Of a stretch of 64,000 nt of DNA, positions 26,074 through 53,250 are shown one piece after another (position 1 is the first letter of the stretch; each line of letters begins with the position of its first letter). A program made the position numbers and the translations under genes. The notes below the pieces were generated by a model, which was given only the letters and a program-made list of their open reading frames with translations, did not search any database and was not told the DNA's origin. Origin of the DNA: a bacterium (GTDB lineage Bacteria; Patescibacteriota; Minisyncoccia; Phycocordibacterales; JBBTRF01); the NCBI GenBank assembly GCA_037130265.1, contig JBAXTI010000001.1, positions 235,086-299,085 of the forward strand, read 5' to 3'.

Positions 26074-26865
26074 ATGGCTCGTAAGTGGACAACTGAAGAA
26101 GAAAGCAACCATCGACACGAGCTGAGCGAGTTGTACGAACACGGTAACTTATCTATTGGACAGATCGCAAAGCGGCTCGGCATTGCTCAGCAGACCATTT
26201 TCAAGCGCATTCGTCGGCTCGGTCTCGTGCCTCACCCTGAGCGAAAGTCGAAGTATAGAAATACGCGGAATGACATCCATATCCCAGAAGAATATTCCGA
26301 TGAACTGGCGGAATTTATCGGGATCATGCTTGGGGACGGTCACCTGTCGCACTTTCAGGCGGTGGTTACATTGGGAACGAAAGAGGTTCCCTATGCTCGG
26401 TATGTCCGTAGGCTCATCACGAAGCTTTTTAAAGCAGAGGCGTCAATCTCGATTCGTGCTGACGGATATCGAGATGTATATCTCAGCTCGGTTGTGGTGA
26501 CAAAATGGCTACGGACACACGGTCTCGTTTCAAATAAAGTATTGGGTCAAGTCGCTCCACCAAAATGGATTTTTACGAAGCCTTCTTTCAAAGAGGCTTT
26601 TATAAGGGGAGTGTTCGATACTGATGGGTCCGTATACAAACTTCGTTTTGGCGTGCAAGTCTCATTTTCCAATCGATCCAGGCCGCTGCTCCGGTCTTTA
26701 CAATTAGCCTTAAGGCAATTACAATACACACCATCTGAGATCAGTGGATACCAGTTGTATCTCACGAAGAATTCAGACCTCAGACGCTTTCTGAAGGAGA
26801 TTTGTCCGAGGAATCCGAAGCATGTTCGTCGGTTCAGGCTCTTTCTGAAATCAGTAAAGAAGTAA
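26074..26865 (+). CDS. free-standing HTH plus double-motif LAGLIDADG homing-endonuclease-like protein
   Basis: Two LAGLIDADG motifs are present (AEFIGIMLGDGHLS and FIRGVFDTDGSVYK). The N-terminal HTH is LSIGQIAKRLGIAQQTIFKRIRRLG. The stop at 26865 is 13 nt before the tRNA-Tyr 5' end. Confidence 0.75.
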   Translation: MARKWTTEEESNHRHELSELYEHGNLSIGQIAKRLGIAQQTIFKRIRRLGLVPHPERKSKYRNTRNDIHIPEEYSDELAEFIGIMLGDGHLSHFQAVVTLGTKEVPYARYVRRLITKLFKAEASISIRADGYRDVYLSSVVVTKWLRTHGLVSNKVLGQVAPPKWIFTKPSFKEAFIRGVFDTDGSVYKLRFGVQVSFSNRSRPLLRSLQLALRQLQYTPSEISGYQLYLTKNSDLRRFLKEICPRNPKHVRRFRLFLKSVKK

Positions 26866-37782: not shown

Positions 37783-39081
37783 ATGCTTGATATTAAATTC
37801 ATCAGGGAGAATACCGAGCTTATACAGCTTGCTGCAAAGCGGAAATCAGTACCATTCGATGTCACTGCATTGATCAGTGTTGATGACAAGCGCCGTGAGC
37901 TCATGACCTCGCTCGAAAAGAAGCGTGCGGAGCAAAACGCGTACAACGAGCGCATTGTGAAGGCTGCGACTTCGGCTGACCCGAATGAACGCGCCACCCT
38001 CATTGCACAGATGAAGACGCTCAAGGACAGCATGCAGGCCGAGGAAGAGGCGCTCAAGGTGGTGATGAAAGAGTGGCAGGCGCTAATGGTACAGGTGCCA
38101 AATATTCCGGATATGTCTGTGCCGGACGGCAACAGTGATGCGGAGAACAAAGAGGTGAAGGCTTGGGGCGAGATTCCAAAGTTTGATTTTGCGCCAAAGA
38201 GCCATATCGAGCTCATGGAGGCGCTCAATCTCTGTGATTTTGACCGCGGTACTAAATTGGCCGGCTTCCGAGGCTATGTTTTGAAGAATGATGCGGTACT
38301 TCTCAATTTTGCTCTCTGGCAATTTGTGCTTGAGATGTATACCAAAAAAGGTTTCTCTCCAGCCATGGTGCCATCACTTGTGAACAAGAATCTGCTCATG
38401 GGCACCGGCTATCTCCCACAGGGTGAGGAGGATTTATACAAAACACAAGACACTACCTATCTCGCAGGCACTGGTGAGGTGGCGGCGATGGGATATCACA
38501 TGGATGAAGTACTCGACAAGTCTCAGCTCCCAGAAAAAACACTCGCTTTTTCTCCGTGTTTCCGACGCGAAGCTGGTGCACATAGCAAAGACACCAAGGG
38601 CGTGAAACGTGTGCATGAATTTTTCAAATTTGAACAAGTGATCCTCTGCGAGGCGAGCCACGAGACTAGCGTCGCACTTCATGAAGAGCTTCTCGCCAAT
38701 GTCGAGGAGATGATGCAGGCGCTCAATATTCCATACCACGTCGTACTCAACTGTGCCGGCGACCTCGGTCTTGGCCAGGTGAAGAAATACGATGTCGAAG
38801 CGTGGGTACCGTCCCAGAAGGCGTGGTGTGAGACACATTCATGTTCATATTTCCATGACTTCCAGACCCGCCGACTCAATATTCGATACAAGGATGCGGA
38901 GGGCAAAATGCGATTTGTGCACTCGCTCAACAACACAGCGCTCGCCAGCCCACGAATCCTCATCCCAATTCTCGAAAACAATCAACAGGCCGACGGATCG
39001 ATCAAGATTCCGCAGGTTCTCCAGAAATATATGGGCGGTCGCACTGTCATTCCTGCCACGCCAGCTAACGGGAATAACTAA
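37783..39081 (+). CDS. serS: serine--tRNA ligase
   Basis: MLDIKFIREN is the typical SerS N-terminus with a coiled-coil arm. Class II motifs are present (FRREAGAHSKDTKGVKRVHEFFKFEQV and GSIKIPQVLQKYMGG at the C-terminus). Confidence 0.9.
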   Translation: MLDIKFIRENTELIQLAAKRKSVPFDVTALISVDDKRRELMTSLEKKRAEQNAYNERIVKAATSADPNERATLIAQMKTLKDSMQAEEEALKVVMKEWQALMVQVPNIPDMSVPDGNSDAENKEVKAWGEIPKFDFAPKSHIELMEALNLCDFDRGTKLAGFRGYVLKNDAVLLNFALWQFVLEMYTKKGFSPAMVPSLVNKNLLMGTGYLPQGEEDLYKTQDTTYLAGTGEVAAMGYHMDEVLDKSQLPEKTLAFSPCFRREAGAHSKDTKGVKRVHEFFKFEQVILCEASHETSVALHEELLANVEEMMQALNIPYHVVLNCAGDLGLGQVKKYDVEAWVPSQKAWCETHSCSYFHDFQTRRLNIRYKDAEGKMRFVHSLNNTALASPRILIPILENNQQADGSIKIPQVLQKYMGGRTVIPATPANGNN

Positions 39082-39956
39082 TGGCGATCGGGCGTTCATC
39101 GAACCTCACCTCACCGCAGTATGCTCGACGGCAACACGAGCAGAAGATTCGCAAGGCAATCGTGGCGAGTGTTTCGTTGCTGATTATTCTCGCGTGCGTG
39201 ATCATCGTCGCTCGGTTGCGTATTTTTCAGATTCAATCGGTCCGGGTGGAGGGGAATTCGGTGACTGCGACGGGCGATGTGCAGGCGAAGGTTGTCGATC
39301 TCACCGCTGGCAATTATCTTTTTGTATTTCCGAAGACCAACGTACTCCTGTATCCAAAGCGAGTCATTCTCACTGCTCTCAAAAAAGAATGGTTCCGCAT
39401 CGATACTGTCTCGGCAGAATTGAATGGTCAGTGGCGAGGCCGGGCTGAACTCACGATACAGATGAGTGAGCGCAAGCCGATGTACGTGTGGTGCGGAAGT
39501 GTACCCCTGGCGGTTGTTTTGCCGGGTTCTGGCAGCGAAGATTGTCTTTATTCCGACGAAACTGGCTATCTCTACGCAACCGCTGCATCCTTTTCAGGGA
39601 CTCCATATGTGAAGCTGTATGGCGGTGTTGCAAACGATCTTTCACCGCTCGGTGCGCATTTTCTCGCTTCTTCGACACCGAATGCATTTGGCAGCGCTCT
39701 CTCTTTTGTCTCCGCGATTGGTGGTGTGGAATTCTTCGGTGCTTCGTTTAAGCCGATGGCCCTCATCGCCAAAGAGAACAATGAGTTTGAAGTGGTGGCT
39801 GCCGGCGGTACGCGCATTTTCTTCACCCTGAATCAAGATATCCAACGTTCCATCGAGGCGTTTCGCCGAGTGGTTGATTCAGAACATCTCATCACTGTAC
39901 CCGTGGAGTATATTGATCTGCGCTATGGGAACAAGGTGTATTACAAAAACCGCTAG
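39081..39956 (+). CDS. FtsQ/DivIB-like cell-division protein (POTRA-containing)
   Basis: A single TM segment (IVASVSLLIILACVIIVA) is followed by a POTRA-like pattern IQSVRVEGNSVTATGDVQAKVVDL...LLYPKRVILTAL...IDTVSAELNGQWRGRAELTIQMSERKP. Confidence 0.45.
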   Translation: MAIGRSSNLTSPQYARRQHEQKIRKAIVASVSLLIILACVIIVARLRIFQIQSVRVEGNSVTATGDVQAKVVDLTAGNYLFVFPKTNVLLYPKRVILTALKKEWFRIDTVSAELNGQWRGRAELTIQMSERKPMYVWCGSVPLAVVLPGSGSEDCLYSDETGYLYATAASFSGTPYVKLYGGVANDLSPLGAHFLASSTPNAFGSALSFVSAIGGVEFFGASFKPMALIAKENNEFEVVAAGGTRIFFTLNQDIQRSIEAFRRVVDSEHLITVPVEYIDLRYGNKVYYKNR

Positions 39957-39974
39957 CTGCGGTATACTATTGAG

Positions 39975-40364
39975 GTGAAAGCTCTGACTCTCTCGTGGCA
40001 GTATTTGCGATGGCACTACTCTCGGGCATTTGCCGAAATGTTCCGCATCATTGGGCGGGCATATTGGTTCGAGTATCACTTTTTTTCAGTCGGGATTCTG
40101 TTGAGGTCGTTTTTTGAGCCTTGGAAGCGTCTTGGCGAGGAAAAGGGAGAAACATTCAAGCTCGATGAGTGGCTACAGGCGACAGTGATCAATACATTGA
40201 TGCGACTCATCGGCATGTCACTACGCGCAGTCATTCTCATTTTTGCGCTGATCGTATGTGTGGTCACGACGGTGGTCGTGGCTTTGTTTGTGGCGATGTG
40301 GTGCTTGCTGCCGTTTATTATTCTCGCGCTGATCGTGAGAGGGATTCAGTTGGCGATTCAGTAG
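39975..40364 (+). CDS. hypothetical small membrane protein
   Basis: Three predicted TM segments. It lies directly upstream of the Clp-like ATPase gene. Confidence 0.35.
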   Translation: MKALTLSWQYLRWHYSRAFAEMFRIIGRAYWFEYHFFSVGILLRSFFEPWKRLGEEKGETFKLDEWLQATVINTLMRLIGMSLRAVILIFALIVCVVTTVVVALFVAMWCLLPFIILALIVRGIQLAIQ

Positions 40365-40383
40365 TGTGTATTTTTAATATGTA

Positions 40384-42834
40384 TTGACCATGGACTCCTC
40401 ACTCATCCAAAAAAAGATTCAAGCATTCCAACCGGCCTTGGCACTCGATGCTTTGGTTGGTTCAGCAAAGCGCCGGACGACGCGTCAGGTCTGGGCGACC
40501 GTGTTCGTGTCGCTTTTGGCGGTGGTGCTCGCCGGAAAGGGGGGCAATCTTGCGCTCGGACTTTTCTGCATTTCCTTTGCAATCGTGTTGAAGGTGTATG
40601 CGATCGAATTTTTCTTCAATTCATATGCGCATAGTCGTGATGCCGACTCTTCGTACATGCTCGCTTCGATGCTGTATCGCTGTACGACATTGCATCCGAC
40701 TGCTGTGTTTATCCTTTCGCCTTTTGGCCGCTGGACATTGAATCGGTGTGGTGTCGGCCGCCTCCCAGCACAGGCATTTTTGACACAAATGACCCATTCG
40801 GCGCAGCCGTTGCCATTGGACCTTTCGGAGGTGCGCACGTTTGCGCAGTTTGTTGAAGAATTGCTCCATGTTGATACGGCGTTTGCACAGTTTTTGCGAG
40901 AATCTGGGGTGGAGAAGAGTGCGTGTATCGGCGCGGCGGAGTGGTGTGAGATTCGCGAGAAGGCTCGTATTGCACAGGCGCGCTGGTGGAGTCATGAAAG
41001 TCTCGCGCGTATTCCGGGATTGGCGAAAGATTGGGCGTATGGCAAAACATATCATTTGGATCGTTTTGGCCGGGATGTGATTGTTGATGCACGTCGACAT
41101 TCGGCTTTGTCGTCTCCTGCGGCTTCGACATTGAGCCTGAATCCTGAATCGTCTTTCCGCCGTGCCGAAATGGTGGCGGTGGAGAAGGTCTTGGTACGAG
41201 ATGGTGCGGGCAGTGCTCTGTTGGTGGGCGACAAGGCGAATGGGGTAATGGATGTGATTCATGGAATCGCCCGGATGATTGATCTCGGTATTGCATACCC
41301 AGAAATCGAGCACAAGCGTTTGATTCGTCTTGATACCCCTTCGATCATGGCGTCGGTGAAGGATCGTGGTTCTTGCGAGGCGTTACTCATTTCTATTTTC
41401 AATGAAGTGGTGAAGGCGGGGAATGTGATTGTGGTGATCGATGAGTTTGCGCTGTTTGTACGCGACACTGCCGCCCTCGGAATCGAAGTACAGTCGCTCC
41501 TTGCCCCGTATCTGTCCTCGGGCGGCGTCCAGCTCATCGCGGTCTCCGACGTGCATTCGTTCCATCAGGTGTTGGAGCCAAAAGCTGAGCTTATGCGATT
41601 TTTTGAAAAGATTCTCCTTGCGCCGATCGACTCCCGTGTGCTTGTGGAGCTGTTGGAGTCGGAAATCGAGCGTGTGGAGCGTCGCAACGGTGTTTTCTTC
41701 ACCTTTCCGGCCATGAAGGAGGTGGTGGAAAGTGCAGAGCGGTATTTTTCACAGGGTTCAAGTATCGACAAGGCACATGACCTCATTGCCGAGATTGCGC
41801 CTTTTGTGCGCGGGCAGAAGCGCAATGTGGTGGAGCGGGCAGATGTGCTCAGTGTGGTGAGCACCAAGACAGGTATTCCACTTGGCGAAGCGTCGGCGGG
41901 CGAGAAGGATGTACTTTTGAAACTTGAAAGTATCTTGCATCAGCGGATTGTTGGGCAGGCGGCGGGTATTCAAGCGATCAGCAACGCAATGCGACGTGCG
42001 CGTTCCGGCGTGAACAATCCAAAGCGTCCGATGGGCTCCTTCCTCTTTATCGGACCAACGGGTGTGGGTAAGACGGAGATGACGAAGGCTCTGGCGAGTG
42101 TATTTTTTGGCAGCGAAGATCGGATCATGCGTTTCGATATGTCGGAATATCGCACGCCGGATGCGCTTGAGCGACTCATCGGCTCGGCGAGTGGTGGGGC
42201 GCCTGGCTTGTTGGCTTCACATTTGCGCGACCAACAATATGGCGTGCTTTTGCTCGATGAATTCGAGAAAACAAACTCCACCGTGCACGATCTGTTTTTG
42301 CAGATCTTGGACGAAGGTTTTTTCACTGATGCGAGTGGTGAGCGGGTGAATGCGCGAAACACTATTATTATTGCGACCTCGAATGCGGGGAGTGATGTGA
42401 TTTGGAAGTTGCTCGGCAATATGAGCGGCAGTGCGGCGGGTGCCAGTGTTGGTGGCGCGACGGGCACATCGATCGCAGATAAAAAATCTGAGATTATCGA
42501 CTCGATCGTTGAGCGCGCAATTTTCAAACCGGAATTGTTGAATCGTTTTGATGATGTGGTGTTGTTCCAGCCGCTTTCGCCGAACGACATGGAGAAGGTC
42601 GGGCGACTCATGTTGGCAAAGCTGAACAAGCGCCTCGATGAAAAGGGGGTGAGTGTCGAAGTTACCGACGAATTGGTGGCGTATTTGGTGAAGGAGGGGT
42701 GTGACCAGAAGTTTGGGGCACGAGCGATGAATCGAGCCATTCAGGAGAAGGTGGAGCAGGCCGTGGCGAAGGCACTTTTGAAAGGTGAGGCAAAACCTGG
42801 TACAGTGCTGCACATCCGACCGGAGGAGCTGTAG
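40384..42834 (+). CDS. membrane-anchored Clp/Hsp100-family ATPase with degenerate D1 and intact D2
   Basis: About 100 N-terminal aa contain two hydrophobic helices. A D1-like region follows with Walker A replaced (LLVGDKANGVMDVIHGIARMI where ClpA/B has LIGEPGVGKTAIxEGLA), although IVVIDEF and PDKAIDL-like elements (IDKAHDLIAE) are retained. A canonical D2 follows ([77 protein letters not shown], sensor GARAMNR). Confidence 0.7.
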   Translation: MTMDSSLIQKKIQAFQPALALDALVGSAKRRTTRQVWATVFVSLLAVVLAGKGGNLALGLFCISFAIVLKVYAIEFFFNSYAHSRDADSSYMLASMLYRCTTLHPTAVFILSPFGRWTLNRCGVGRLPAQAFLTQMTHSAQPLPLDLSEVRTFAQFVEELLHVDTAFAQFLRESGVEKSACIGAAEWCEIREKARIAQARWWSHESLARIPGLAKDWAYGKTYHLDRFGRDVIVDARRHSALSSPAASTLSLNPESSFRRAEMVAVEKVLVRDGAGSALLVGDKANGVMDVIHGIARMIDLGIAYPEIEHKRLIRLDTPSIMASVKDRGSCEALLISIFNEVVKAGNVIVVIDEFALFVRDTAALGIEVQSLLAPYLSSGGVQLIAVSDVHSFHQVLEPKAELMRFFEKILLAPIDSRVLVELLESEIERVERRNGVFFTFPAMKEVVESAERYFSQGSSIDKAHDLIAEIAPFVRGQKRNVVERADVLSVVSTKTGIPLGEASAGEKDVLLKLESILHQRIVGQAAGIQAISNAMRRARSGVNNPKRPMGSFLFIGPTGVGKTEMTKALASVFFGSEDRIMRFDMSEYRTPDALERLIGSASGGAPGLLASHLRDQQYGVLLLDEFEKTNSTVHDLFLQILDEGFFTDASGERVNARNTIIIATSNAGSDVIWKLLGNMSGSAAGASVGGATGTSIADKKSEIIDSIVERAIFKPELLNRFDDVVLFQPLSPNDMEKVGRLMLAKLNKRLDEKGVSVEVTDELVAYLVKEGCDQKFGARAMNRAIQEKVEQAVAKALLKGEAKPGTVLHIRPEEL

Positions 42835-44154
42835 GTGGGGGAGGGGCCAATCTGGTACGTGGCGATTTATATGAATTTTTTTCAGAAAACACGAGACATA
42901 TTTAGCGATACTTTTGGCCACCTTTTTTCTGCTGATGTAGAGCGGGGGGATTTGTGGTATCGATTGAAGCAGGCGAAAGCGGGTCTGGAGGCTGGCAAGG
43001 CGGGTGAGAAGCCGGCCGAGCCAATTTTCGTGTTGGCACCGATGGCAGATGTGACCGATGCGGCGTTCCGAAAGATTATTGCGAAGTACAGCCGGATGGG
43101 CGCGCGAGCGCAGGGGGCGCCGGATGAGCGGGTGGCTGGCGGCCCGGACGCAATGTGGACGGAATTTGTGTCGGCGGACGGACTCGCTCGCGCGCCCAAA
43201 ATCGGCCGAGACAAATTGTTGCGAGATTTGTTGTATAGCGAAGGGGAGCGGCCGATCATCGCACAGTTTTTCACTTCGAATCCGGCTCATATGGAGCTGG
43301 CCGCTGAACTCGCGGTGGAGATGGGGTTTGATGGGATCGATATTAATATGGGCTGTCCGGACAAAAGTATTGAGAAGCAGGGGGCGGGGGCGTCGATGAT
43401 CAAAAGTCCACGAGTTGCGCGCCGAGTACTTCGAGCGGCTCTGCGCGGTGCTGCGAATGGTGCAAAGAAGTACGGCAAGCCCGTCCCGGCAGTCTCCGTG
43501 AAGACGCGTATTGGGTATGGAAAAAACGAATTGGCGACATGGTTGCCGGCATTGCTCGCGGAGCGTCCCGCATTGATTACTGTCCATGCTCGTAATCGCA
43601 AAGAACTTTCTTTGGTACCAGCGCGTTGGGAACATGTGCGCGAAGCGGTGGAGATCCGGGATCGAGTGCAAGCGAATTTGCCGATCGAAAAGCGCACGCT
43701 CATTTTTGGTAATGGTGATGCACGAAATCTTGCTGATGCTCGAGAAAAAGCGCGCATGAGTGGTGCTGATGGGGTGATGCTTGGCCGTGCCATCTTCGGC
43801 AACCCATGGCTTTTCGACGAAAGCGCCTATATGCATGTGGATACGAATGCTGGTGGCAAGGGTGTTGATGCGGCGAGCGGGCACGCAATTGGTTTTGGTG
43901 GGGCGGTGTTGGGCGTTGATCATTTTTATAACAAAGCTCAGATCGAAGAACGCCTCCGAGTGATGGTGGAGCATACGGAACTCTTTGAAAAACTGCTTGG
44001 TGACCTAAAGAACTTCTCGATTATGAAGAAGCATTACAAGGCGTATGTGCATGGTTGGGAAGGGGCGAAGGAGCTGCGTGCACTGCTCATGCAGACCAAC
44101 TCAGCAGGGGAGGCGAAGGGGGTTGTGGACAACTATTTGACTAAAACAAGCTAG
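42835..44154 (+). CDS. dus: tRNA-dihydrouridine synthase (Dus family) with an N-terminal extension
   Basis: VLAPMADVTDAAFRKI, GFDGIDINMGCPDKSIEKQGAGASMI (catalytic Cys) and VSVKTRIGY. Confidence 0.8.
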   Translation: MGEGPIWYVAIYMNFFQKTRDIFSDTFGHLFSADVERGDLWYRLKQAKAGLEAGKAGEKPAEPIFVLAPMADVTDAAFRKIIAKYSRMGARAQGAPDERVAGGPDAMWTEFVSADGLARAPKIGRDKLLRDLLYSEGERPIIAQFFTSNPAHMELAAELAVEMGFDGIDINMGCPDKSIEKQGAGASMIKSPRVARRVLRAALRGAANGAKKYGKPVPAVSVKTRIGYGKNELATWLPALLAERPALITVHARNRKELSLVPARWEHVREAVEIRDRVQANLPIEKRTLIFGNGDARNLADAREKARMSGADGVMLGRAIFGNPWLFDESAYMHVDTNAGGKGVDAASGHAIGFGGAVLGVDHFYNKAQIEERLRVMVEHTELFEKLLGDLKNFSIMKKHYKAYVHGWEGAKELRALLMQTNSAGEAKGVVDNYLTKTS

Positions 44155-44906: not shown

Positions 44907-46124
44907 ATGAAAGCCGAGGAAAAGAGCAAGAAAGGGGCCGACGGAGCAGCCGGGACGATGGCTGTCAAGGAGGTGAGCGCAGCCCGCACCGCTTCCCACA
45001 GCGCTTTGTACCGCAAATACCGCCCTGCGAGCTTTGCCGACGTGCTTGGACAGGAGCAGGTGGTGAAGGCGCTCGAGGGGGCGATTGGTGCCGGTAAAAA
45101 TACCGCGGGCAAAAGCGGCACTTCGACCACCGGCCGGCCGAACATTTCCCACGCCTACCTCTTCTCCGGCTCACGTGGCACGGGCAAGACCTCAGTGGCA
45201 CGCATTTTTGCACAGGCAATCGGTACGTCGGCCAATGACCTCTACGAGATCGATGCGGCATCGAATCGTGGCATCGACGATGTGCGCGAGCTTCGCGAGG
45301 CGGTGAACACATTGCCTTTTGAGTCGCCATACAAGGTGTACATCATCGACGAGGTGCACATGCTCACCAAGGAGGCCTTCAACGCGCTCTTGAAGACGCT
45401 TGAGGAGCCGCCTGCGCATGTTGTGTTTATTTTGGCGACGACGGATCCGGAAAAGCTTCCGCAGACGGTGGTGTCGCGCTGTCAGACGTTTGTGTTCAAG
45501 AAACCGGGGACGGAGCTACTCAAGGAGAGTGTGTTGCGTGTGTCGAAAGCAGAAGGATTCAAGGTTGCAGATGAGGCCGCTGAGCTCATCGCCTTGCTTG
45601 GCGACGGATCGTATCGCGACACGCTCGGTGCGCTTCAGAAGGTGCTGGGGGCGGTGGGGGGAGGTGAGGCCGGTAGCGCGAAGGGTGCAAAAAGTAGCGG
45701 TGCGACGGAGGTGACCCTCGAAGACGTCGAGCGCGTCACTTCGGCGCCGCGTTCGAAGCTGGTGCAAGACTTCATTCTCGGTCTTGGCGAGGGGTCGGCG
45801 GGCGGTGCTGAAAAAGCGTTGGCGGTGATCCGACAGACGCAGGAGCACGGTGTCGACATGCGTGTGTTTGTGACGATGGTGTTGCAGAAAGTCCGCTTCA
45901 TCTTGCTCATGCGTATGTCGGCAGAAATGGAGAAGATTGCAAAGGAGCAATTTTCCGAGGCGGAATTTGTGTTTCTGAAGAAATGTGCGGGGGATGGTTC
46001 CGGCACAAAGATTAATTCAAAAGTGGTGCTCGAATTGCTTGCCGCACTTGAGCAGACAGGCAGTTCGCCGATTCCGCAATTGCCGCTCGAGCTTGCGGTT
46101 TTGCGGTTGACCCAAGAGAAATAA
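44907..46124 (+). CDS. dnaX: DNA polymerase III subunit gamma/tau (short form)
   Basis: YRKYRPASFADVLGQEQV, Walker A HAYLFSGSRGTGKTSVARIFA, YKVYIIDEVHML, and EEPPAHVVFILATTDPEKLPQTVVSRCQ. The start is placed at the ATG at 44907 (MKAEEKSKK). The upstream in-frame extension is hydrophobic and low-complexity and is unlikely to be real. Confidence 0.85.
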   Translation: MKAEEKSKKGADGAAGTMAVKEVSAARTASHSALYRKYRPASFADVLGQEQVVKALEGAIGAGKNTAGKSGTSTTGRPNISHAYLFSGSRGTGKTSVARIFAQAIGTSANDLYEIDAASNRGIDDVRELREAVNTLPFESPYKVYIIDEVHMLTKEAFNALLKTLEEPPAHVVFILATTDPEKLPQTVVSRCQTFVFKKPGTELLKESVLRVSKAEGFKVADEAAELIALLGDGSYRDTLGALQKVLGAVGGGEAGSAKGAKSSGATEVTLEDVERVTSAPRSKLVQDFILGLGEGSAGGAEKALAVIRQTQEHGVDMRVFVTMVLQKVRFILLMRMSAEMEKIAKEQFSEAEFVFLKKCAGDGSGTKINSKVVLELLAALEQTGSSPIPQLPLELAVLRLTQEK

Positions 46125-46143
46125 TTTTTGATATAATTGACGA

Positions 46144-46854
46144 ATGCACAATGCGGCATCGTATCCTCTGTTCAAGACGAGGGCCGTGCAGCTTCGTCTG
46201 GAAGGAAAAACATATAGTGAAATCCTAGAGGCTGTGCCTGTGGCAAGGTCGACACTTTCGCTTTGGCTAAGAGGCACTTCTTTGGCGGAACCGCAGAAGC
46301 AAAGATATACCGAAAAGAAGCGCCTAGCCGCTTTGAGAGGCGGACAAAAAAGAAAGCAGGACCGGATCGATATCACCAAGACTATTTTTGAAAAGTGCCG
46401 CAGCGATATTTCCATGATCACGACGAGAGAGCTATGGCTCATCGGGATTTCGCTGTATTGGGCAGAAGGGTCGAAGCAAAAAGAGTACAATCCCGGCTCA
46501 GGTACATATTTTTCTAATACTGATTTGAGAATGTTGCAAGTATTTGTCGCTTGGTTGGAGCGATGCGTTGGTATCCAATCTGAGGATATTTCTTACGACC
46601 TTTTCTTACACGAGACTGCGCGGAAAAAGTTGCTCGAAGTCGAAACGTATTGGAGAAGCGGACTGAATATTACGCGAGATCAGCAGTTCAGTGTGTATTG
46701 GAAACGGACTCAGATACGGACGAGCAGGCGCAACATTGGCGACTTGTATTATGGGTGTCTTCGGGTTAAAGTAAGGGCGAGTTCGTCGTTGAATCGAGCA
46801 CTTGCCGGCTGGGCTGATGCGATTACTGGTGCTGTCTGTTGTCACGAGATATAG
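46144..46854 (+). CDS. HTH plus LAGLIDADG-like (single degenerate motif) endonuclease-like protein
   Basis: The N-terminal HTH is TYSEILEAVPVARSTLSLWLRG. WLIGISLYWAEGSK resembles a LAGLIDADG helix, with Glu at the acidic position. It is paralogous to the 30358-31019 pseudogene. The stop at 46854 is 14 nt before tRNA-Gln. Confidence 0.55.
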   Translation: MHNAASYPLFKTRAVQLRLEGKTYSEILEAVPVARSTLSLWLRGTSLAEPQKQRYTEKKRLAALRGGQKRKQDRIDITKTIFEKCRSDISMITTRELWLIGISLYWAEGSKQKEYNPGSGTYFSNTDLRMLQVFVAWLERCVGIQSEDISYDLFLHETARKKLLEVETYWRSGLNITRDQQFSVYWKRTQIRTSRRNIGDLYYGCLRVKVRASSSLNRALAGWADAITGAVCCHEI

Positions 46855-46868
46855 TGTTTCCAATTTTT

Positions 46869-46939
46869 TGGGGGATCGTCTAATGGTAGGACATCAGGTT
46901 TTGGTCCTGAGTATCGGGGTTCGAGTCCCTGTCCCCCAG
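46869..46939 (+). tRNA. tRNA-Gln (anticodon TTG)
   Basis: TGGGGGATCGTCTAATGGTAGGACATCAGGTTTTGGTCCTGAGTATCGGGGTTCGAGTCCCTGTCCCCCAG. U1-A72 and G73 match the bacterial Gln identity set. Anticodon loop TTTTGGT. Confidence 0.85.
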
Positions 46940-47024
46940 CAGTCTAGTTTAGTTCTGAACGACCAAGAGGGGTCAGAACAAACAGATATCTATACCGTCA
47001 TCGCATACCTGCTGAGAGCAGTAT

Positions 47025-47052
47025 TCAAGACAAAAAATCACCGATACAAGTC
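47025..47052 (+). terminator. rho-independent terminator downstream of tRNA-Gln
   Basis: aatcaccgatacaagtcggtgatt followed by ttttg. Confidence 0.65.
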
Positions 47053-47093
47053 GGTGATTTTTTGTTAAGATAAGATGGATTAATTGATTATGT

Positions 47094-47675
47094 ATGTCAG
47101 AAAATACCTGGAAAGAATACTTCGAAAGAACAAAAGATAGTAAACCTAGACCTCTACTTGTTAAGGCAGTGGATTTGGTGGTGGACAAAAATGAAGCACT
47201 TGATTTGGGCTCGGGTGCTTTTAATGATGTTAGATACTTGGTTTCGAAAGGTTTTAAACATATTACAGCTGTAGACAGTAAACCGATAGCTCAAGGTATC
47301 ATTCAGAATTTTCCGACAGAAATTGTCTCATATATTATCAGTTCTTTTGAGAATTTTGATTTTGTTGAAAACAAATATGATCTTATAAATGCTCAATACT
47401 CTCTACCATTTAACCCAGAGAATACTCTTGAAAGAGTTTTCAAATCAATCACTTCTTCTCTTAAAGATGGAGGGATACTCACAGGTCAATTTTTTGGAAC
47501 TAAAGATGAATGGAATGTTGAAGGCCATAAAATGAATTTTCAAACTCGCGAACAAGCAGAAAAATTACTAAGTGGTTTAGAAGTTATTGATTTTCAAGAA
47601 GAGGAGGAAGATAGAAAAACAGCAAAGGGAGATATGAAGCATTGGCACGTTTTCCATTTTATAATAAAAAAATAA
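47094..47675 (+). CDS. class I SAM-dependent methyltransferase (island cargo)
   Basis: Motif I ALDLGSGAFNDVRYLVSKGFKHITAVD. Small MTase fold, possibly TehB-like. Confidence 0.55.
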   Translation: MSENTWKEYFERTKDSKPRPLLVKAVDLVVDKNEALDLGSGAFNDVRYLVSKGFKHITAVDSKPIAQGIIQNFPTEIVSYIISSFENFDFVENKYDLINAQYSLPFNPENTLERVFKSITSSLKDGGILTGQFFGTKDEWNVEGHKMNFQTREQAEKLLSGLEVIDFQEEEEDRKTAKGDMKHWHVFHFIIKK

Positions 47676-47676
47676 T

Positions 47677-48171
47677 ATGGAAATAAAAACTCAAATAACA
47701 AATAGTAGAGGAAAAGTTTTCGATACTATATATAAAGATGGAGATCCTGAAACAGATTTAGAAAATAGTGTTATACACGGTGTTCATTCATTTTGCTTTT
47801 ATAAAGATAAGATGGTTATAGTTTCAAATTCAAGAAAAGAGTGGACTCCTCCTGGTGGCGGTATTGAACCTGGAGAGAATTATAAAGAAGCATCTATCCG
47901 TGAAATAAAAGAGGAAGCAAACATGAAAGTTCTTCACCAAGAGTGCATTGGTTACCAAGACGTTTGGATATCGGATGAAAACAGGATGGTAAGGCAGGTA
48001 CGAATGTTTTGTATAGTTGAACCATATGGAGATTTTGAGAAAGATCCTGATGGAGATATTTTAGAAATAAAACTGATTGATCCAAAAGATTATAAAGAAT
48101 ATATAAAATGGGGAGAAATCGGAGATCATTTGATGGGAAGAGCTTTAGAGCTTAGTCAAAAAATAAAATGA
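47677..48171 (+). CDS. NUDIX hydrolase (island cargo)
   Basis: Nudix box GGGIEPGENYKEASIREIKEEANM (Gx5Ex7REUxEExGU). Confidence 0.75.
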   Translation: MEIKTQITNSRGKVFDTIYKDGDPETDLENSVIHGVHSFCFYKDKMVIVSNSRKEWTPPGGGIEPGENYKEASIREIKEEANMKVLHQECIGYQDVWISDENRMVRQVRMFCIVEPYGDFEKDPDGDILEIKLIDPKDYKEYIKWGEIGDHLMGRALELSQKIK

Positions 48172-48812
48172 AACTTATTTTTCAATATAATAAAGAAAAA
48201 GATATTTGGTGCATCCTTAACAAAGGAAAAAGTTCTAATAATTCTCCAATTCCTACTAAAGTATATGAAGAACTTGTGGCAACATGCGGAGAAAATCCTT
48301 CGGCGGATTCCACATCTTCTTTTGTAAATAAATACTTTTTAGATAAAAACATAAAAGTAAATGAATATATAGAAAAATATCAGAGGGACTGGTATAGCAT
48401 TACAGAGAAATATCAAAAAAGAGCAGAGTCAGTGTTTGGAGTTTCATTACCGAGCGACATTGTTGTGTATCTTACGATTAATAATAGATGTCCATACAAC
48501 ATAGAAGATAATTACTTTTTTGTGACAATTCCTGCTTCTTCAGTTAGAAGAACAATAATGCACGAATTGTGGCATTTCTATATGTGGTACGGGCTAGGAG
48601 CAGATCAAGAAGAAAAATTAGGAAAGCAAAAGTATAATGATTTAAAAGAGGCTTTGACTGTATTGCTCAACGTGGAATGTAAAGATTTACTGCCAGAAGG
48701 GGTATATGATGGCGGTTATCCACAACATAAGGAAGTGAGAGAAGAAATTTTAGAATATTGGTCAAAAAATAAAAATATCAAGGATCTTTGGAAATATTTA
48801 CAGACAAAATAA
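48168..48812 (+). CDS. hypothetical protein with an HExxH motif (island cargo)
   Basis: IMHELWHFYMW contains HExxH. There is no other recognisable similarity. Confidence 0.35.
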   Translation: MKLIFQYNKEKDIWCILNKGKSSNNSPIPTKVYEELVATCGENPSADSTSSFVNKYFLDKNIKVNEYIEKYQRDWYSITEKYQKRAESVFGVSLPSDIVVYLTINNRCPYNIEDNYFFVTIPASSVRRTIMHELWHFYMWYGLGADQEEKLGKQKYNDLKEALTVLLNVECKDLLPEGVYDGGYPQHKEVREEILEYWSKNKNIKDLWKYLQTK

Positions 48813-48813
48813 T

Positions 48814-49581
48814 ATGGACATCGATAAACACAAAAAACAATTCGGTAATCAAGCAGAAAACTATACTAAGTATAGAAAACCATATACTGAAAAGTTATAT
48901 GAGCTTCTTTTCTCCTTAGCTCCTGGAAAAAAGATTCTAGATATAGCTTGTGGTACAGGTAAATCTACAGAACCGATGGTCAGAAGCGGAACGGAAGTTA
49001 TAGGATGTGATCACGATCCACTGATGATTGCAGAAGCTATTAAGCAGGCTGAGATTAAAAGCTCACCTATTAAATACATTGTTGCAGATGTTGAACATTT
49101 ACCATTTGAAGATTCAAACTTTGATGTAGTAACTGTAGGCACGGCATTTCATTGGTTTGTAAATGAAAAGTCTGTTACAGAAATAAAACGAGTACTTAAG
49201 GAAAAGGGTTTATTTTTTATTTTTTGGACTCTTACCACTAAAGATGTACCTGAAGAAGATTCCATCCCAGGAAGTTTCTATAAAACATTCAATTGGGATA
49301 AAGTTCCACCTGAATTAAGAAATTTAGATTATATTTCAAATTTCTTCAAAGAGCAGGGATTCCAGAATGTTAACACCGCAAGAATTCCATTTAGTCACAA
49401 TGATACCGTCGAAGAACAAGTAGGACTAATGAAAACAGCTTCAAGTTACGAGATTCTATCAGATAGTGAAAAAGAACGATTTATCAGAGAGTTAACTGAA
49501 CTTCTTACAACTAAATTAGGTAATAGACCCTACTTCACTTACGAAGAGGAAATACAGGTGTGTTATGGGTTCAAGAAATAA
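48814..49581 (+). CDS. class I SAM-dependent methyltransferase (island cargo)
   Basis: Motif I ILDIACGTGKSTEPM, then post-I GCDHD, then VTVGTAFHWF. Confidence 0.65.
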   Translation: MDIDKHKKQFGNQAENYTKYRKPYTEKLYELLFSLAPGKKILDIACGTGKSTEPMVRSGTEVIGCDHDPLMIAEAIKQAEIKSSPIKYIVADVEHLPFEDSNFDVVTVGTAFHWFVNEKSVTEIKRVLKEKGLFFIFWTLTTKDVPEEDSIPGSFYKTFNWDKVPPELRNLDYISNFFKEQGFQNVNTARIPFSHNDTVEEQVGLMKTASSYEILSDSEKERFIRELTELLTTKLGNRPYFTYEEEIQVCYGFKK

Positions 49582-49598
49582 TCATATAAAGTAATTAT

Positions 49599-50585
49599 AT
49601 GGAGTCAGTTTTACAAAAAATAACGGAAGAATATAACCTCAATTTTAAAGTTCTTGATAAGGTTACTCAAGGTTTTTTAAGTGATAATTATATTCTTGCT
49701 GATGGTCAAAAGAAGTATTTTCTTAAGAAATATAGGTTTAAAAATAAAGAACGAATGAGTGAGGTACATTCTGCGAAAAGATATTTCTTCGAAGGTGGTA
49801 TTCCAGTAATTATGCCCTTGCTCACAGATTCAGATGAAAGCTTTTTTGAACATAATGGGAGTTTTTATGCCCTCTTTCCTTTCATATTAGACCATCAACT
49901 TAAACCAGATGAAATCACTAAAGACGCGATTGTTTCTCTTGGAGAAACTCTTGCTCGACTACATCTTCGAGGAAAAGAAAGTAAACTTAAAATAAATGAA
50001 TTTTTCAGACCATGGGATAAAGAAGAGCGAATGAGAGGAATCAATCAAATTCTCGAAAAGATCTCACTCATAGAAAACAAAACCGATTTTGATATTCAAG
50101 CCGAAAAGAACATCTTGCTCAAGAAATCAGTTATTGAATCAAATAATCGAACATATGAATCTTTTAACTTTCTTAATGATCACCTCATTCACGGCGATTA
50201 CATGATAGGAAATGTATTTTTTGATGACCAGAACAATGTATCCAATGTGTTTGATTTTGAAAAAACAGAATATGCACCTAGATTTTTTGAGCTGTTTCGT
50301 TCAATGATATATACAACTTTCTTTGATGAAAATATTACGGAAGAGACTTTGGCTAATACAAAACTCTATCTCGATTCATATTTGAATATATATCCTATGT
50401 CAAAAGAGGAATTGGATGATGCTTTTACAGCATATTATATCAACAGATCTCACTCTTACTGGGTGGAAGCTGAGCATTATCTTAGAGGGAATACGAGAGC
50501 TGATGAACTTCTTGAAAGTGATATTGCACGCATGAATTATTTTTCAGAGAATTTTGAAGTATTAAAGAAGTATCTTATAGAATAG
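49599..50585 (+). CDS. aminoglycoside-phosphotransferase/choline-kinase-fold (APH-like) kinase (island cargo)
   Basis: Brenner motif HGDYMIGNVFFDD and a downstream DFE (VFDFEKTEYAP) are present. Length and layout fit small-molecule kinases of the APH/ChoK/HSK-II family. Confidence 0.6.
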   Translation: MESVLQKITEEYNLNFKVLDKVTQGFLSDNYILADGQKKYFLKKYRFKNKERMSEVHSAKRYFFEGGIPVIMPLLTDSDESFFEHNGSFYALFPFILDHQLKPDEITKDAIVSLGETLARLHLRGKESKLKINEFFRPWDKEERMRGINQILEKISLIENKTDFDIQAEKNILLKKSVIESNNRTYESFNFLNDHLIHGDYMIGNVFFDDQNNVSNVFDFEKTEYAPRFFELFRSMIYTTFFDENITEETLANTKLYLDSYLNIYPMSKEELDDAFTAYYINRSHSYWVEAEHYLRGNTRADELLESDIARMNYFSENFEVLKKYLIE

Positions 50586-51918
50586 TAATAAGTTTCTCTT
50601 TCAGAATAATCTTACTCTTTAAACATCCCAGTAAATCTCTTTTTTCAAATATTGATCCTTCGGTTAGTAAATACCTAGCGTAGTTTCTAATGTCAGCATC
50701 TTTCGCTTGATAGTTTTCTTCAGTCTTACCCATTATTCCAGAATGAAATTTCTTATGTCTCTCTATTTCGATTTCCAACTTCTTTTTAAGACCAGATTTG
50801 TCTAGATCAATCCTATCTATCATTTCTAGTAATTGTGATATTAAAACTTTTTCTTCAATGTAGCCTTCTTTGCAATGAATATTTTTAGATCGAGTACAAC
50901 CATAGTATATATACTTTGCTATCGTTCCATCTTTTAGATTCTTATACTTTTCCTGTGCAGTTACTCCTGATCCACATACTCCACAAGTAAGCATCCGAGT
51001 AAATGCAAACTCTTTATTTTTTTCAGTCGATTTTATTTGTAAATGTAATTGTTTTTGTGCCGCATCAAACAAATCTTTTGATATGAGTGGAGTATGTTTA
51101 CCTTGAAACCATCTACCACTTAATTTTGGGTATTCAAAAGTGCCATGATAAAAGTGATTATCTAAAATAGTGTAGACATTACTTAGGGTTAGAGGCTTTC
51201 CATTTCTGGATAGGAATTTAATCTCTCGTAACCATTTATATACTTTTCTGCCACTCCAACTCTCATATCCGACTTTCGTAAACATTTCTTTGATAATTGA
51301 GCTTCTGTCTGGATCTACTAATACTACGCCCGGCTTGTCTCTGTCTTTAGAATTTAAGTAGCCAGTAGGAGCGACACTCGGCCAAAGTCCCATTTCACAT
51401 TTTGTTTTGAGTCCTCGTTTTACATTAATGCTTTTATTGTCGTTCTCAAGTTTGGCTTGTGATCCGAGAATCATGAGTAGAAATTTCTCATTTGGATTGT
51501 TTGTAAATCTTTGGCTATGAGTCCGTATCTCAATTAACTTTTTCTGATCTAGTAAGTCTACTAATGATCCAAGATCTCCAGCATTTCTGCTTAAACGATC
51601 TGGATGCCACACAAGTATTCCATCAAACTTTCCATTCCTAATATCTGTAAGAAGTTTGTTGTATACCGGTCTTTGCCCGCAATCTTTTGCTGAATGGGAT
51701 TCTCTATAAATCTCTAGAATATTGAGGTTATCCCTTTGGGCAATGTTGAGCATCTCTTTAACCTGAGAATCTACTGACAAAGCCTGCCTTTCCTCGGCTT
51801 CGCTTGATTTACGGGCATACTCATTAACAGATGAGTCTCTACCAAATGAAAAAAGATTCAGCAAAAACTGTCCTGTGCTACGGAGACTCAAACACGTGGG
51901 GTTCAAAATAATCTTCAT
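50575..51918 (-). CDS. large serine recombinase (resolvase/invertase catalytic domain, recombinase domain and Zn-ribbon)
   Basis: N-terminal ARKSSEAEERQALSVDSQ (catalytic Ser region), GILVWHPDRLSRN, then a recombinase domain and CGVCGS...YYGCTRSK...HC zinc ribbon. Confidence 0.75.
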   Translation of the reverse strand: MKIILNPTCLSLRSTGQFLLNLFSFGRDSSVNEYARKSSEAEERQALSVDSQVKEMLNIAQRDNLNILEIYRESHSAKDCGQRPVYNKLLTDIRNGKFDGILVWHPDRLSRNAGDLGSLVDLLDQKKLIEIRTHSQRFTNNPNEKFLLMILGSQAKLENDNKSINVKRGLKTKCEMGLWPSVAPTGYLNSKDRDKPGVVLVDPDRSSIIKEMFTKVGYESWSGRKVYKWLREIKFLSRNGKPLTLSNVYTILDNHFYHGTFEYPKLSGRWFQGKHTPLISKDLFDAAQKQLHLQIKSTEKNKEFAFTRMLTCGVCGSGVTAQEKYKNLKDGTIAKYIYYGCTRSKNIHCKEGYIEEKVLISQLLEMIDRIDLDKSGLKKKLEIEIERHKKFHSGIMGKTEENYQAKDADIRNYARYLLTEGSIFEKRDLLGCLKSKIILKEKLITIL

Positions 51919-51972
51919 GAAGGATTCGATAGTGCCTTGCCCAGTGAACCATCGTTCACCTATAATAGGTGA

Positions 51973-53250
51973 GTGAATCAGTCGACGAAAAATGCCGCGT
52001 CCGCGACTGCGCCAAAAATTGCCGTCTCAAAAACCCTCCTCCACATCGACGGGGATGCGTTTTTTGTGGGCGTTGAGGTGGCGAAGAATCCGAAGCTCAA
52101 AGGTCTGCCGGTGGTGACTGGCGAGGAGCGCGGGATCGTATCGGCGCTGTCGTACGAAGCCAAGGCGCTCGGGGTTATTCGTGGCATGCCAATTTTCAGG
52201 CTGAAAAAAGAATTTCCGCAGGTCATCATCCTGCCCGGCGACTACGCGTCGTATGTGCGGTATTCGCAGCTGATGTTCGACATCGTCCGCCGATACGCCG
52301 ATGATGTCGAGGAATACAGTATCGATGAATGCTTCGCCGACCTCACTGGCCTGGATCGACCGCTGAAAATGACGTATTTGCAAATGGCCCAGCGGATCAA
52401 GAAAGAGATCACCGAAGAGCTCGGCCTGTCGGTGTCTATTGGCCTCGCGCCCACCAAGGTGCTCGCGAAAGTCGCGTCGAAATGGGTGAAGCCCAATGGT
52501 CTCACTGTGATTGGCTGTGAGACAGCGCCCGACTTCCTCGAAAATACGCCGATAGAAAAAATCTGGGGGATTGGGCCGCGAACCTCCGAGCTTTTGAAAC
52601 GAAAGGGAATACACACCGCCGGTGATTTTGCTCGCAAAGAATTGTCGTGGTTGCAAGTGCATCTGTCGAAGCCGTATCTGACTATTTGGCAGGAACTGAA
52701 TGGTATTTCCGTCGTACCCATCGACCCGGAGAAAAAGACCACCTATTCCTCGATACAAAAGACGAGGTCGTTTCATCCGAGCACCAACGACACAACATTT
52801 CTCATCTCGCAGCTCTCGAAACACATCGAGGATGCCTGTGCAAAAGCTCGGCACTTCAAGCTTGCACCGAAGAAGGTATCTTTTTTCCTGAAGTCGAAAG
52901 ATTTTGTGTATTCCAATCACACCGTCACGCTCGCATCGCCGACCAATGCACCGGAAATCATCGTGTCGCTAGCCGTGAAGGAATTTCAAAAGATCTACGC
53001 CAAACGAACCCTGTATCGCACCACCGGAGTGACGCTTCACGACTTGGTACCGTCGGGTGCGCATCAAGCAGACTTGTTTGGTGGGAGTGAGATGGCCAAC
53101 AAGCTCGAGGCGATTCATGGCCGGATCGACATGCTCGAAGACAAATTCGGCAAACGCACCGTGTATTTGGCTTCGACCCACAACGCACTCCAACAAAAGG
53201 CGGGTGGTACCGATGCGGATGATTTGGATCGGGATTTGTTGTTTTTGTAA
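51973..53250 (+). CDS. dinB: DNA polymerase IV (Y-family)
   Basis: LLHIDGDAFFVGVEV, SIDECFADLTG, LSVSIGLAPTKVLAKVAS, IWGIGPRTSELLKRKGIHTAGD. Confidence 0.8.
   Translation: MNQSTKNAASATAPKIAVSKTLLHIDGDAFFVGVEVAKNPKLKGLPVVTGEERGIVSALSYEAKALGVIRGMPIFRLKKEFPQVIILPGDYASYVRYSQLMFDIVRRYADDVEEYSIDECFADLTGLDRPLKMTYLQMAQRIKKEITEELGLSVSIGLAPTKVLAKVASKWVKPNGLTVIGCETAPDFLENTPIEKIWGIGPRTSELLKRKGIHTAGDFARKELSWLQVHLSKPYLTIWQELNGISVVPIDPEKKTTYSSIQKTRSFHPSTNDTTFLISQLSKHIEDACAKARHFKLAPKKVSFFLKSKDFVYSNHTVTLASPTNAPEIIVSLAVKEFQKIYAKRTLYRTTGVTLHDLVPSGAHQADLFGGSEMANKLEAIHGRIDMLEDKFGKRTVYLASTHNALQQKAGGTDADDLDRDLLFL

Follow-up and report, generated by a model that had tools for sequence, protein, structure and literature searches.

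The Hsp100/Clp ATPases are textbook soluble threading machines in which the tyrosine paddles are thought to be essential. Among AAA+ enzymes that are found at membranes, FtsH, with two N-terminal transmembrane (TM) helices, and Msp1 have an N-terminal TM anchor that holds a hexameric AAA+ ring beneath the membrane so that the entry face is turned to the bilayer. Plasmodium HSP101, the ClpB-type Hsp100 that works at the membrane alongside the membrane subunits of PTEX, is itself soluble, with its first and second AAA+ modules (D1 and D2) both active and its pore tyrosines in place, and it sets its D2 exit face on the EXP2 pore and pushes substrates across. Proteins of the NSF/p97 type use one AAA ring as a scaffold and the other to hydrolyse ATP, the structural ring still binding nucleotide. 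FtsH is described as membrane-anchored (PMC9020784); in YME1L, another AAA+ enzyme, a TM anchor drives hexamerisation (PMC5095350); and Torsins, which are related to Clp/Hsp100 proteins, lack aromatic pore loops, have a hydrophobic domain at the N-terminus and require TM cofactors (PMC5425593). Here we describe a gene for a membrane-anchored Clp/Hsp100-like ATPase at 40390-42834 (+) of a 64,000-nucleotide window of patescibacterial DNA (positions 235,086 to 299,085 of contig JBAXTI010000001.1, assembly GCA_037130265.1), as characterised from its open reading frame (ORF), Pfam and NCBIfam matches, homologues, an AlphaFold2 (AF2) model and Foldseek. An earlier, sequence-only reading of this DNA had taken the product for a Clp/Hsp100 relative tethered to the membrane, its D1 a pseudo-ATPase and its D2 intact, and motif counts in 111 relatives, hydropathy and AF2 bear this out. 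Judging from its homologues, the ATPase is a member of a large uncharacterised family restricted to Patescibacteria (candidate phyla radiation, CPR).

The mechanical ORF runs over 40384-42834 (+) from a TTG start, and the ATG at 40390, two codons downstream, is the start used in homologues and in the NCBI gene model (MEI6345890.1, 'MAG: AAA family ATPase [bacterium]'), giving a protein of 814 aa. Pfam matched just AAA_2 (residues 548-724) and ClpB_D2-small (residues 731-810) in it. The NCBIfam ClpA model aligned continuously over residues 262-811 and the ClpB model (TIGR03346) matched in two separate stretches, all of the Clp models scoring far under their cut-offs (333 vs 993 bits for ClpA and 379 vs 1232 bits for ClpB), and NCBIfam was found to hold no model specific to the family. 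The AF2 model of the full-length protein had a predicted local distance difference test score (pLDDT) of 82.5, and Foldseek on this model returned ClpC and ClpB protomers (E ~1e-38, target-normalised TM-score (TMt) ~0.75). Two tandem AAA+ modules are present, followed by the C-terminal ClpB_D2-small domain (residues 728-814; 42571-42831 (+); Pfam PF10431, 7.7e-22), as in class I Clp/Hsp100 proteins; the two functional Walker A/B sites of that class are not, D1 being dead and D2 intact, nor are its aromatic pore loop-1 residues (KYRG in D1 and GYVG in D2).

To find the extent of the family, a profile (A3) of the N-terminal 258 aa, seeded with the query, was searched against 1.84 billion representative proteins. 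With a threshold of E<=1e-3 it matched 677 proteins, each standing for a cluster at 50% identity; the number fell to 461 at E<=1e-10 and to 243 at E<=1e-30, and every full-length match was 780-860 aa long. The conservation counts given below refer to an alignment of 111 full-length relatives, one representative per 50%-identity cluster. A genome scan with one genome per species returned 89 relatives, from which 80 loci were retained; a relative is present in at least 89 species-representative genomes, and is single-copy in each of the 80 loci examined. All 80 loci come from assemblies of uncultured bacteria, many of which carry unreliable taxonomic labels, and the named lineages are Patescibacteria groups (including Taylor-, Vogel-, Yonath-, Nomura- and Zambryski-bacteria, Paceibacterota and Parcubacteria) except for one labelled Gammaproteobacteria; many of the third-party annotation (TPA) assemblies carry a Saccharibacteria label. 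A partial family member (P0310), with the Trp-rich linker described below and 'GSPGVGKRT' in D1, was seen on a 1.4-kb contig deposited as Nitrosarchaeum sp.; contamination of the bin is more probable than a family member in an archaeon.

The D1 module (residues 258-478; 41161-41823 (+)), delimited by alignment to the D1 of ClpB and ClpA, retains the AAA+ fold and is catalytically dead. It aligns by phmmer to ClpB 187-414, with LLVGDKANGVMDVIHG paired with VLIGEPGVGKTAIVEG (K->V, T->M), and phmmer and MAFFT agree in placing LLVGDKANGVMDV opposite VLIGEPGVGKTAI, so that the P-loop Lys and Thr read V and M in the degenerate Walker A GDKANGVM (residues 280-287; 41227-41250 (+); canonical GEPGVGKT). 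That D1 keeps its ClpA/B homology yet has lost these two residues had been proposed from the sequence with the proviso that a Walker A might have been misaligned; the homology is supported by the continuous ClpA alignment and the loss by both aligners and by an alignment-free count, in which the expression GxxGxGK[ST] occurs once in 110 of the 111 family members and twice in 18/18 canonical Clp proteins. Across the family 32/111 have the Walker A Lys of D1, 5/111 the Thr and 1/111 the intact GK[ST]. At the D1 pore loop-1 position the query reads KDRG (residues 324-327; 41359-41370 (+); canonical KYRG), and Tyr occupies this column in 0/111 relatives, which have D, E, N, T or S there instead. 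The Walker B DE (residues 351-352; 41440-41445 (+)) is retained in the query's subclade only (3/111), most other relatives having DD, DN, PN, EH or KH, and the sensor-1 Thr is mostly replaced by Asp. D1 nevertheless keeps a length of 145-160 aa across relatives with a mean pairwise identity of 0.31, and is therefore a maintained scaffold rather than a decaying remnant. The same pattern bears on the idea that the whole gene is a decaying, non-functional Clp paralogue, for which the degenerate D1 motifs and pore loops could be cited: the ORF is intact, 461 clusters at E<=1e-10 have a constant length, the D2 catalytic residues are invariant in 111/111 and the length of D1 is kept, and we give this explanation practically no credence. 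As a pseudogene, the gene is refuted by its conservation pattern.

D2 (residues 521-727; 41950-42570 (+); Pfam AAA_2, 3.2e-37) is catalytically intact, with a mean pairwise identity of 0.58 among relatives. Its Walker A GxTGVGKT (GPTGVGKT in the query, residues 555-562; 42052-42075 (+)), Walker B DE (residues 623-624; 42256-42261 (+)), sensor-1 TSN, Arg finger NR and sensor-2 GAR were each found in 111/111 relatives, and because these catalytic residues are invariant, 'regulatory pseudo-ATPase', one of two functions suggested earlier, does not suit the entire protein. D2 had also been called canonical, which holds for all its catalytic motifs and fails for pore loop 1, where the query has RLIGSASGGAPGLL and canonical proteins have RLVGSPPGYVGYEEGGQL. 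In all 111 relatives a deletion of 4-6 residues strips the PPGY of the canonical SPPGYVGYEEGG and with it the GYVG tyrosine. The position after the deletion is F or Y in 61/111 and Ala in the query, whose truncated loop (RLIGSASGGAPGLLAS, residues 595-610; 42172-42219 (+)) holds no aromatic residue whatever; the expression G[YFW][VIL]G matched 4/111 family members, compared with 17/18 canonical Clp proteins.

No ClpP-binding loop had been obvious by eye, and none was found on checking, the docking motif [ILVM]G[FLIM] being present in the D2 loop after sensor 1 of 0/111 family members; LGF stands there in a ClpC reference, P0021, and IGF in the other Clp protein of the window. The loop where ClpA and ClpC bear the tripeptide contains in the query a Gly/Ala/Ser-rich low-complexity insert (residues 678-691; 42421-42462 (+); AF2 pLDDT <50), which is limited to its close relatives and absent in P0002 and others. 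An M-domain, which in ClpB is a long coiled coil inserted in the small domain of D1, is likewise absent from the ATPase, the ClpA model aligning continuously and the homologue alignment having a gap where ClpC has this domain; the protein has neither the score nor the M-domain expected of a ClpB (TIGR03346).

These absences weigh on the other function first suggested, 'unfoldase or disaggregase', of which the membrane-tethered Clp derivative with a hydrolysis-competent D2 stands; since the pore tyrosines are lost in both D1 and D2, a classical threading unfoldase or disaggregase is doubtful, and there is no M-domain. In its fullest form this explanation would have the protein tethered to the membrane as a general unfoldase or disaggregase that acts on soluble or aggregated proteins, with a ClpB-like chaperone activity placed there. 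The overall homology and fold shared with ClpB and ClpC, the intact D2 and the probably retained N-like domain (see below) speak for it. We consider it improbable all the same, because without an M-domain there is no coupling to Hsp70, the canonical tyrosines of both pores are gone, D1, which contributes to substrate engagement in ClpB, is dead, the entry face would be directed at the membrane, and a canonical Clp/Hsp100 is already encoded in the same genome.

N-terminal TM helices had been predicted from the letters of the sequence, and are backed by Kyte-Doolittle hydropathy and by AF2. The protein begins with a cytoplasmic N-terminal helix (residues 3-22; 40396-40455 (+); AF2 helix and alignments A2/A3) that carries a conserved P-A-L-x-L-D/E motif and a basic cluster ahead of the first TM helix. 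This is followed by a TM helical hairpin (residues 25-80; 40462-40629 (+)), with TM1 at ~25-47, a loop GKGGN and TM2 at ~53-80. Hydropathy of the query gave two hydrophobic segments at ~36-54 and 53-79 (numbered from the TTG), exactly two such segments were found at the N-terminus of 107/111 relatives, and the AF2 helices 3-22, 25-47 and 53-80 had pLDDT values of 85-92. The 15 aa before TM1 contain on average 4.0 Lys plus Arg, compared with 1.1 in the inter-TM loop (111 relatives), which indicates an N-in hairpin and a cytoplasmic ATPase.

The hairpin had been thought to stand in place of a Clp N-domain, and in this respect the reading has to be changed. Pfam gave zero matches, Clp_N included, in the N-terminal 258 aa at E<=10, and the AF2 model of residues 82-210 alone (pLDDT 89.4) found Clp N-domains as all of its top eight matches in a Foldseek search of PDB (ClpC1, ClpC and a Corynebacterium Clp), with the N-domains of ClpA, ClpB and Hsp104 lower in the same list. 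The scores of these matches are weak (probability <=0.98, TM-score ~0.5, E 0.1-1), as is the hhalign comparison with a Clp_N alignment, which spans both repeats (P=6e-4, probability 28%). The best PDB fold matches of residues ~85-197 (40642-40980 (+)) being almost all Clp N-domains, this region is predicted from AF2, Foldseek and hhalign to form a divergent Clp N-like helical domain, and it is probable that the TM hairpin was added in front of it rather than replacing it. Between this domain and D1 lies a Trp-rich linker, RWWSxExLxRIPGxAKDWxYGxTYxLxRF (residues 198-232; 40981-41085 (+)), which is family-specific; it is 35 aa long in 111/111 relatives and is the most conserved segment outside D2 (mean pairwise identity 0.44), with W199, W200, L205 and G218 each at least 85% conserved.

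Directly upstream of the ATPase gene, at 39975-40364 (+), neighbourhood homology and hydropathy revealed a gene for a small conserved membrane protein of 129 aa (MEI6345889.1, 'hypothetical protein'), which from its distribution is a conserved obligate membrane partner of the ATPase. A homologous protein was present in 7/7 neighbourhoods, including two with a different wider context, and a hidden Markov model (HMM) of the partner found a same-strand upstream match in 77/77 loci with enough upstream DNA, so that the co-occurrence proposed for inspection by the sequence-only reading is borne out in every testable locus. The gaps between partner and ATPase are mostly 0-30 nt; at the present locus an AT-rich spacer of 25 nt lies between the partner stop codon and the ATPase start, with no obvious Shine-Dalgarno sequence. 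Pfam found no domain in the partner, whose at least 135 database relatives are all unnamed and all from Patescibacteria, and its motifs are YLxWHY, WFxYxFFS, APWRRL, INxxMRLVG and W..LP. It had been described as a three-TM protein, and it is a membrane protein with two strong C-terminal TM segments; the third, N-terminal hydrophobic segment is borderline, with a Kyte-Doolittle value (KD17) of 1.47 as the family mean and 0.88 in the query.

Natural fusions of the two proteins argue strongly, by the Rosetta-stone principle, that ATPase and partner form one membrane complex. At one locus (L088:2590-5049 (+)) a single ORF of 819 aa matches the partner HMM over residues 5-113 (E=4.9e-24) and goes on directly with the Clp N-like domain, linker, D1 (GQPGIGRHT in this form, K->R) and D2. 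The N-terminal helix and TM hairpin of the ATPase are missing from this protein and the partner takes the place of the hairpin. Two further proteins have the fused form, namely P0308, which is 62% identical and named 'Microgenomates bacterium DG_75', and the fragment P0309 (32% identical); one of the examples is labelled Microgenomates and one Gammaproteobacteria, the latter probably a binning label. As the last TM segment of the partner leads straight into the Clp N-like domain in these proteins, the C-terminus of the partner is expected to be cytoplasmic. No fusion was found among 150 representative matches, the three given here having come from elsewhere, and N-terminal extensions of P0211, P0243 and P0304 were rejected as fusions, being mis-called starts. 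The query carries each of the features by which the family is proposed to be recognised, namely the N-terminal helix, TM hairpin, Clp N-like domain, 35-aa linker and a partner gene directly upstream.

The next gene upstream (39081-39956 (+)) encodes a 291-aa FtsQ/DivIB-like bitopic membrane protein, as judged from profile A5, Pfam and hydropathy, with a single TM segment at residues 22-54. Profile A5, made from 15 FtsQ-like homologues, matched E. coli FtsQ structures (E=1.2e-5), and Pfam found POTRA_1 in 9/15 and FtsQ_DivIB_C in 5/15 of these homologues. Of the 77 partner-bearing loci, 53 have an FtsQ homologue upstream in the same orientation, directly next to the partner gene in 41 and at 167-1469 bp in 12; it is a frequent upstream neighbour outside the invariant core. 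In a locus with a divergent context (L008) the neighbours are MltG/YceG, an SLT domain protein and MurJ, and downstream neighbours elsewhere include a Peptidase_S11 (L004) and an enzyme of glycoside hydrolase family 18 (GH18; L006). The ATPase-partner pair was found in a conserved array of topA, dprA, serS, ftsQ, dus and dnaX across genomes that are only ~40% identical. In the present window, serS, the ftsQ-like gene, the partner, the ATPase and dus are packed over 37783-44154 so closely that neighbouring genes either overlap or are at most 25 nt apart (a shared ATGA at 39081, then spacers of 18 nt, 25 nt and 0 nt), and these overlaps and short gaps suggest that the run from serS to dus is one long transcript mixing translation, division and tRNA-modification genes.

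An ATPase with a small TM protein is a common layout of defence systems, and the pair could be taken for an anti-phage or conflict module with the small protein as effector, since two PADLOC models, DolB and PDC-M37B, match the ATPase at 1e-34. Their matches span the generic D2 core only (residues 505-669), neither the small protein nor the FtsQ-like protein has a PADLOC match, and the pair lies among conserved housekeeping genes. Presence in at least 89 species-representative genomes, and in a single copy at all 80 loci, is what a core gene would show rather than an island gene. A defence role is for these reasons very unlikely, and membership of Dodola DolB or PDC-M37B was rejected on the partial D2 match, the absence of PADLOC matches in the neighbours and the housekeeping synteny.

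Function was inferred from anatomy and gene neighbourhood only, and the reading that we prefer, for and against which the case is evenly balanced, is that a D2-driven ring at the cytoplasmic face of the membrane remodels or extracts membrane or envelope clients through a non-canonical pore. The ATPase and its partner would constitute a two-component integral-membrane machine, derived from ClpB/ClpC and specific to Patescibacteria, in which a Clp-type hexamer is held below the cytoplasmic face of the membrane. Because the link between TM2 and the N-domain is just ~5-25 residues by alignment and AF2, the face of the N-domain and D1, the entry side of every Hsp100 protein, would point at the bilayer and the partner, in the geometry of FtsH and Msp1 and the reverse of that of HSP101 in PTEX. 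D2 would be the sole motor and D1 a passive scaffold ring. Tethering and the partner probably stand in for the assembly driven by D1 nucleotide binding, and may also replace the adaptor control given by M-domains and D1 in ClpB and ClpC, with action independent of ClpP and of Hsp70. The machine would most likely pull on or remodel clients that are embedded in the membrane or associated with it, and would handle them through an aromatic-poor pore; the recurrent neighbourhood of FtsQ, MltG, MurJ and penicillin-binding protein (PBP) genes makes envelope or division proteins plausible clients.

Several points weigh against this proposal. Both pore-loop-1 aromatics are missing or unconserved, which argues against the processive threading that extraction normally needs. 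The hexamer, its stoichiometry and its clients are putative, the TM helices come from hydropathy and AF2 alone, and the Clp N-like assignment is based on the weak Foldseek and hhalign scores given above. The FtsQ linkage is missing from ~30% of loci and could reflect conserved gene order in compact genomes rather than shared function; since serS, dus, dnaX, dprA and topA are syntenic too, gene order may account for part of it.

The missing aromatics would be accommodated by the main rival, a non-threading switch resembling Torsin, in which the D2 cycle toggles the conformation or assembly of the partner and thereby acts on membrane or envelope processes, the ring being a regulated clamp or remodeller rather than an unfoldase and translocating no polypeptide. 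Torsins likewise have no aromatic pore loops, a hydrophobic N-terminus and TM cofactors (PMC5425593), which can be set beside the absence of a D1 pore Tyr (0/111), the shortened D2 loop (111/111; aromatic tip in 61/111 and none in the query), the membrane anchor and the obligate TM partner of the present ATPase. The likeness has limits, and such a switch is to our minds possible but rather doubtful: the Arg finger, which Torsins lack, is present in 111/111 and need not come from a cofactor, D2 is that of a typical bacterial ClpB/C (E ~1e-70) with no Torsin among its PDB matches, a Clp N-like domain, in related proteins the binding site of substrates or adaptors, has probably been kept, and slightly over half of the family has F or Y beside the deletion. 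The D2-driven remodelling or extraction of clients remains the reading that we would carry forward.

No description of the ATPase family was found in the searchable full-text literature, and Pfam, NCBIfam and PADLOC were found to have no model for the N-terminal region of the ATPase or for the partner. The architecture had not been recognised among described Clp proteins when first noticed, and this search agrees with that impression; what the first account missed, and what emerged only from the family as a whole, are the obligate partner, the fusion form, the FtsQ linkage and the restriction to Patescibacteria. As a Clp/Hsp100 derivative the protein is not categorically new, and it is the combination of a TM hairpin, a pseudo-ATPase D1, no pore tyrosines in either ring, a TM subunit, a natural partner-ATPase fusion and restriction to the CPR that is, to our knowledge, undescribed. 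We put forward only tentatively, as possible and less than likely, that this is the first integral-membrane Clp/Hsp100, a CPR-wide two-subunit machine that works without aromatic threading to remodel membrane or divisome components and is a bacterial counterpart of the Torsin-cofactor systems. If true, the machine would have one ring that is live and one that serves as a scaffold, together with a TM subunit of its own, and would be a functional counterpart of those enigmatic systems. A large and conserved lineage of membrane-integral, one-ring, tyrosine-less ATPases that needs a small membrane subunit would broaden the mechanistic range of Hsp100/Clp proteins and would offer a tractable prokaryotic comparison for AAA+ proteins without pore loops such as Torsins. 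Patescibacteria have reduced genomes with many unknown core genes, among which a conserved module is flagged here; being often co-located with ftsQ and peptidoglycan genes, it may belong to their poorly understood envelope and division biology.

The rest of the window holds several other features. The gene at 23228-26026 (+) encodes a separate Clp/Hsp100 with two canonical P-loops, and the ATPase is distinct from it, as had been stated at the outset. This second protein is ClpB-like throughout, with a full M-domain and a TIGR03346 score of 1175.8 bits, slightly below the cut-off of 1232, and has 'IGF' at residues 738-740 (ERIGFSGG), in the D2 loop where ClpA, ClpC and ClpX dock ClpP. Since it combines ClpB likeness over its full length and an M-domain with an IGF tripeptide, it can be regarded as a ClpB/ClpC hybrid that occurs in nature and is similar to the engineered BAP variant. 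A C-terminal tail of ~70 aa rich in Gly, Ala, Ser, Thr and Lys was also seen in it, and a free-standing LAGLIDADG-type protein with an N-terminal helix-turn-helix is encoded directly downstream (26074-26865 (+)). The gyrA gene (3030-6782 (+); GyrA, 1250 aa) is interrupted by an intein, with the Pfam Intein_splicing match at residues 150-534 inside the DNA_topoisoIV domain. A stretch at ~46000-52000 has a low GC content (0.32-0.41, compared with ~0.52 elsewhere) and stops at the gene of a large serine recombinase (50575-51918, minus strand), which makes an integrated element probable; the counterpart of this stretch in two close loci (L001 and L002) contains methyltransferases, a NUDIX hydrolase and an aminoglycoside phosphotransferase (APH) kinase.

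Compared with the described systems, the ATPase is closest to the class I Clp/Hsp100 proteins ClpB, ClpC and ClpA, with which it shares the tandem D1-D2 modules and the ClpB_D2-small domain; its D2 is ~40% identical to those of ClpB and ClpC with every catalytic motif shared, the protomer fold is that of ClpB and ClpC (TMt ~0.75), an 'L-x-R/K-F/Y-G-x-D-L' segment before D1 has been kept, and so, probably, has a Clp N-like domain. It differs from class I Clp proteins in its N-terminal TM hairpin, dead D1 site and obligate small TM partner, in its pore loops, of which that of D1 has no Tyr and that of D2 is truncated and has no GYVG, and in being without the M-domain of ClpB and ClpC and the ClpP tripeptide of ClpA and ClpC. 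With FtsH and Msp1 it has in common the N-terminal TM anchoring and the proposed direction of the entry face toward the bilayer, whereas these enzymes, as members of the classical AAA clade, have one AAA module each and aromatic pore loops, and the ATPase has two Clp-type modules and lacks a conserved aromatic residue in its pore loops. FtsH in addition bears an M41 protease domain, while no protease domain is present here, and no match to Peptidase_M41 or FtsH_ext was found in the ATPase, which despite its TM hairpin does not qualify as an FtsH. With Torsins and their cofactors LAP1 and LULL1 it shares, as an analogy only, a Clp-related origin, the absence of a conserved aromatic pore loop, membrane association and a TM partner; Torsins, however, are single-module, luminal and eukaryotic with an Arg finger supplied by the cofactor, whereas here there are two modules, an invariant Arg finger and a small non-AAA partner. 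No Torsin chain was found among the PDB sequence matches of the ATPase, so that no relation closer than a generic Clp one is seen, and a specific kinship to Torsin was rejected on these grounds (Arg finger NR in 111/111, two modules, no Torsin PDB match). The NSF/p97-type proteins resemble the ATPase in having one structural and one motor ring, as is apparent here, and differ in belonging to another AAA clade, the P-loop Lys and Thr of D1 being lost in most members of the present family. HSP101, whose structures (6e10 and 6e11) were among the PDB matches of the ATPase, is in PTEX likewise a ClpB-type Hsp100 acting at a membrane with membrane subunits, but it docks by its D2 exit face, whereas the tethered face of the ATPase would be that of the N-domain and D1; canonical polarity would therefore pull clients from the membrane, unlike HSP101, which pushes them across.

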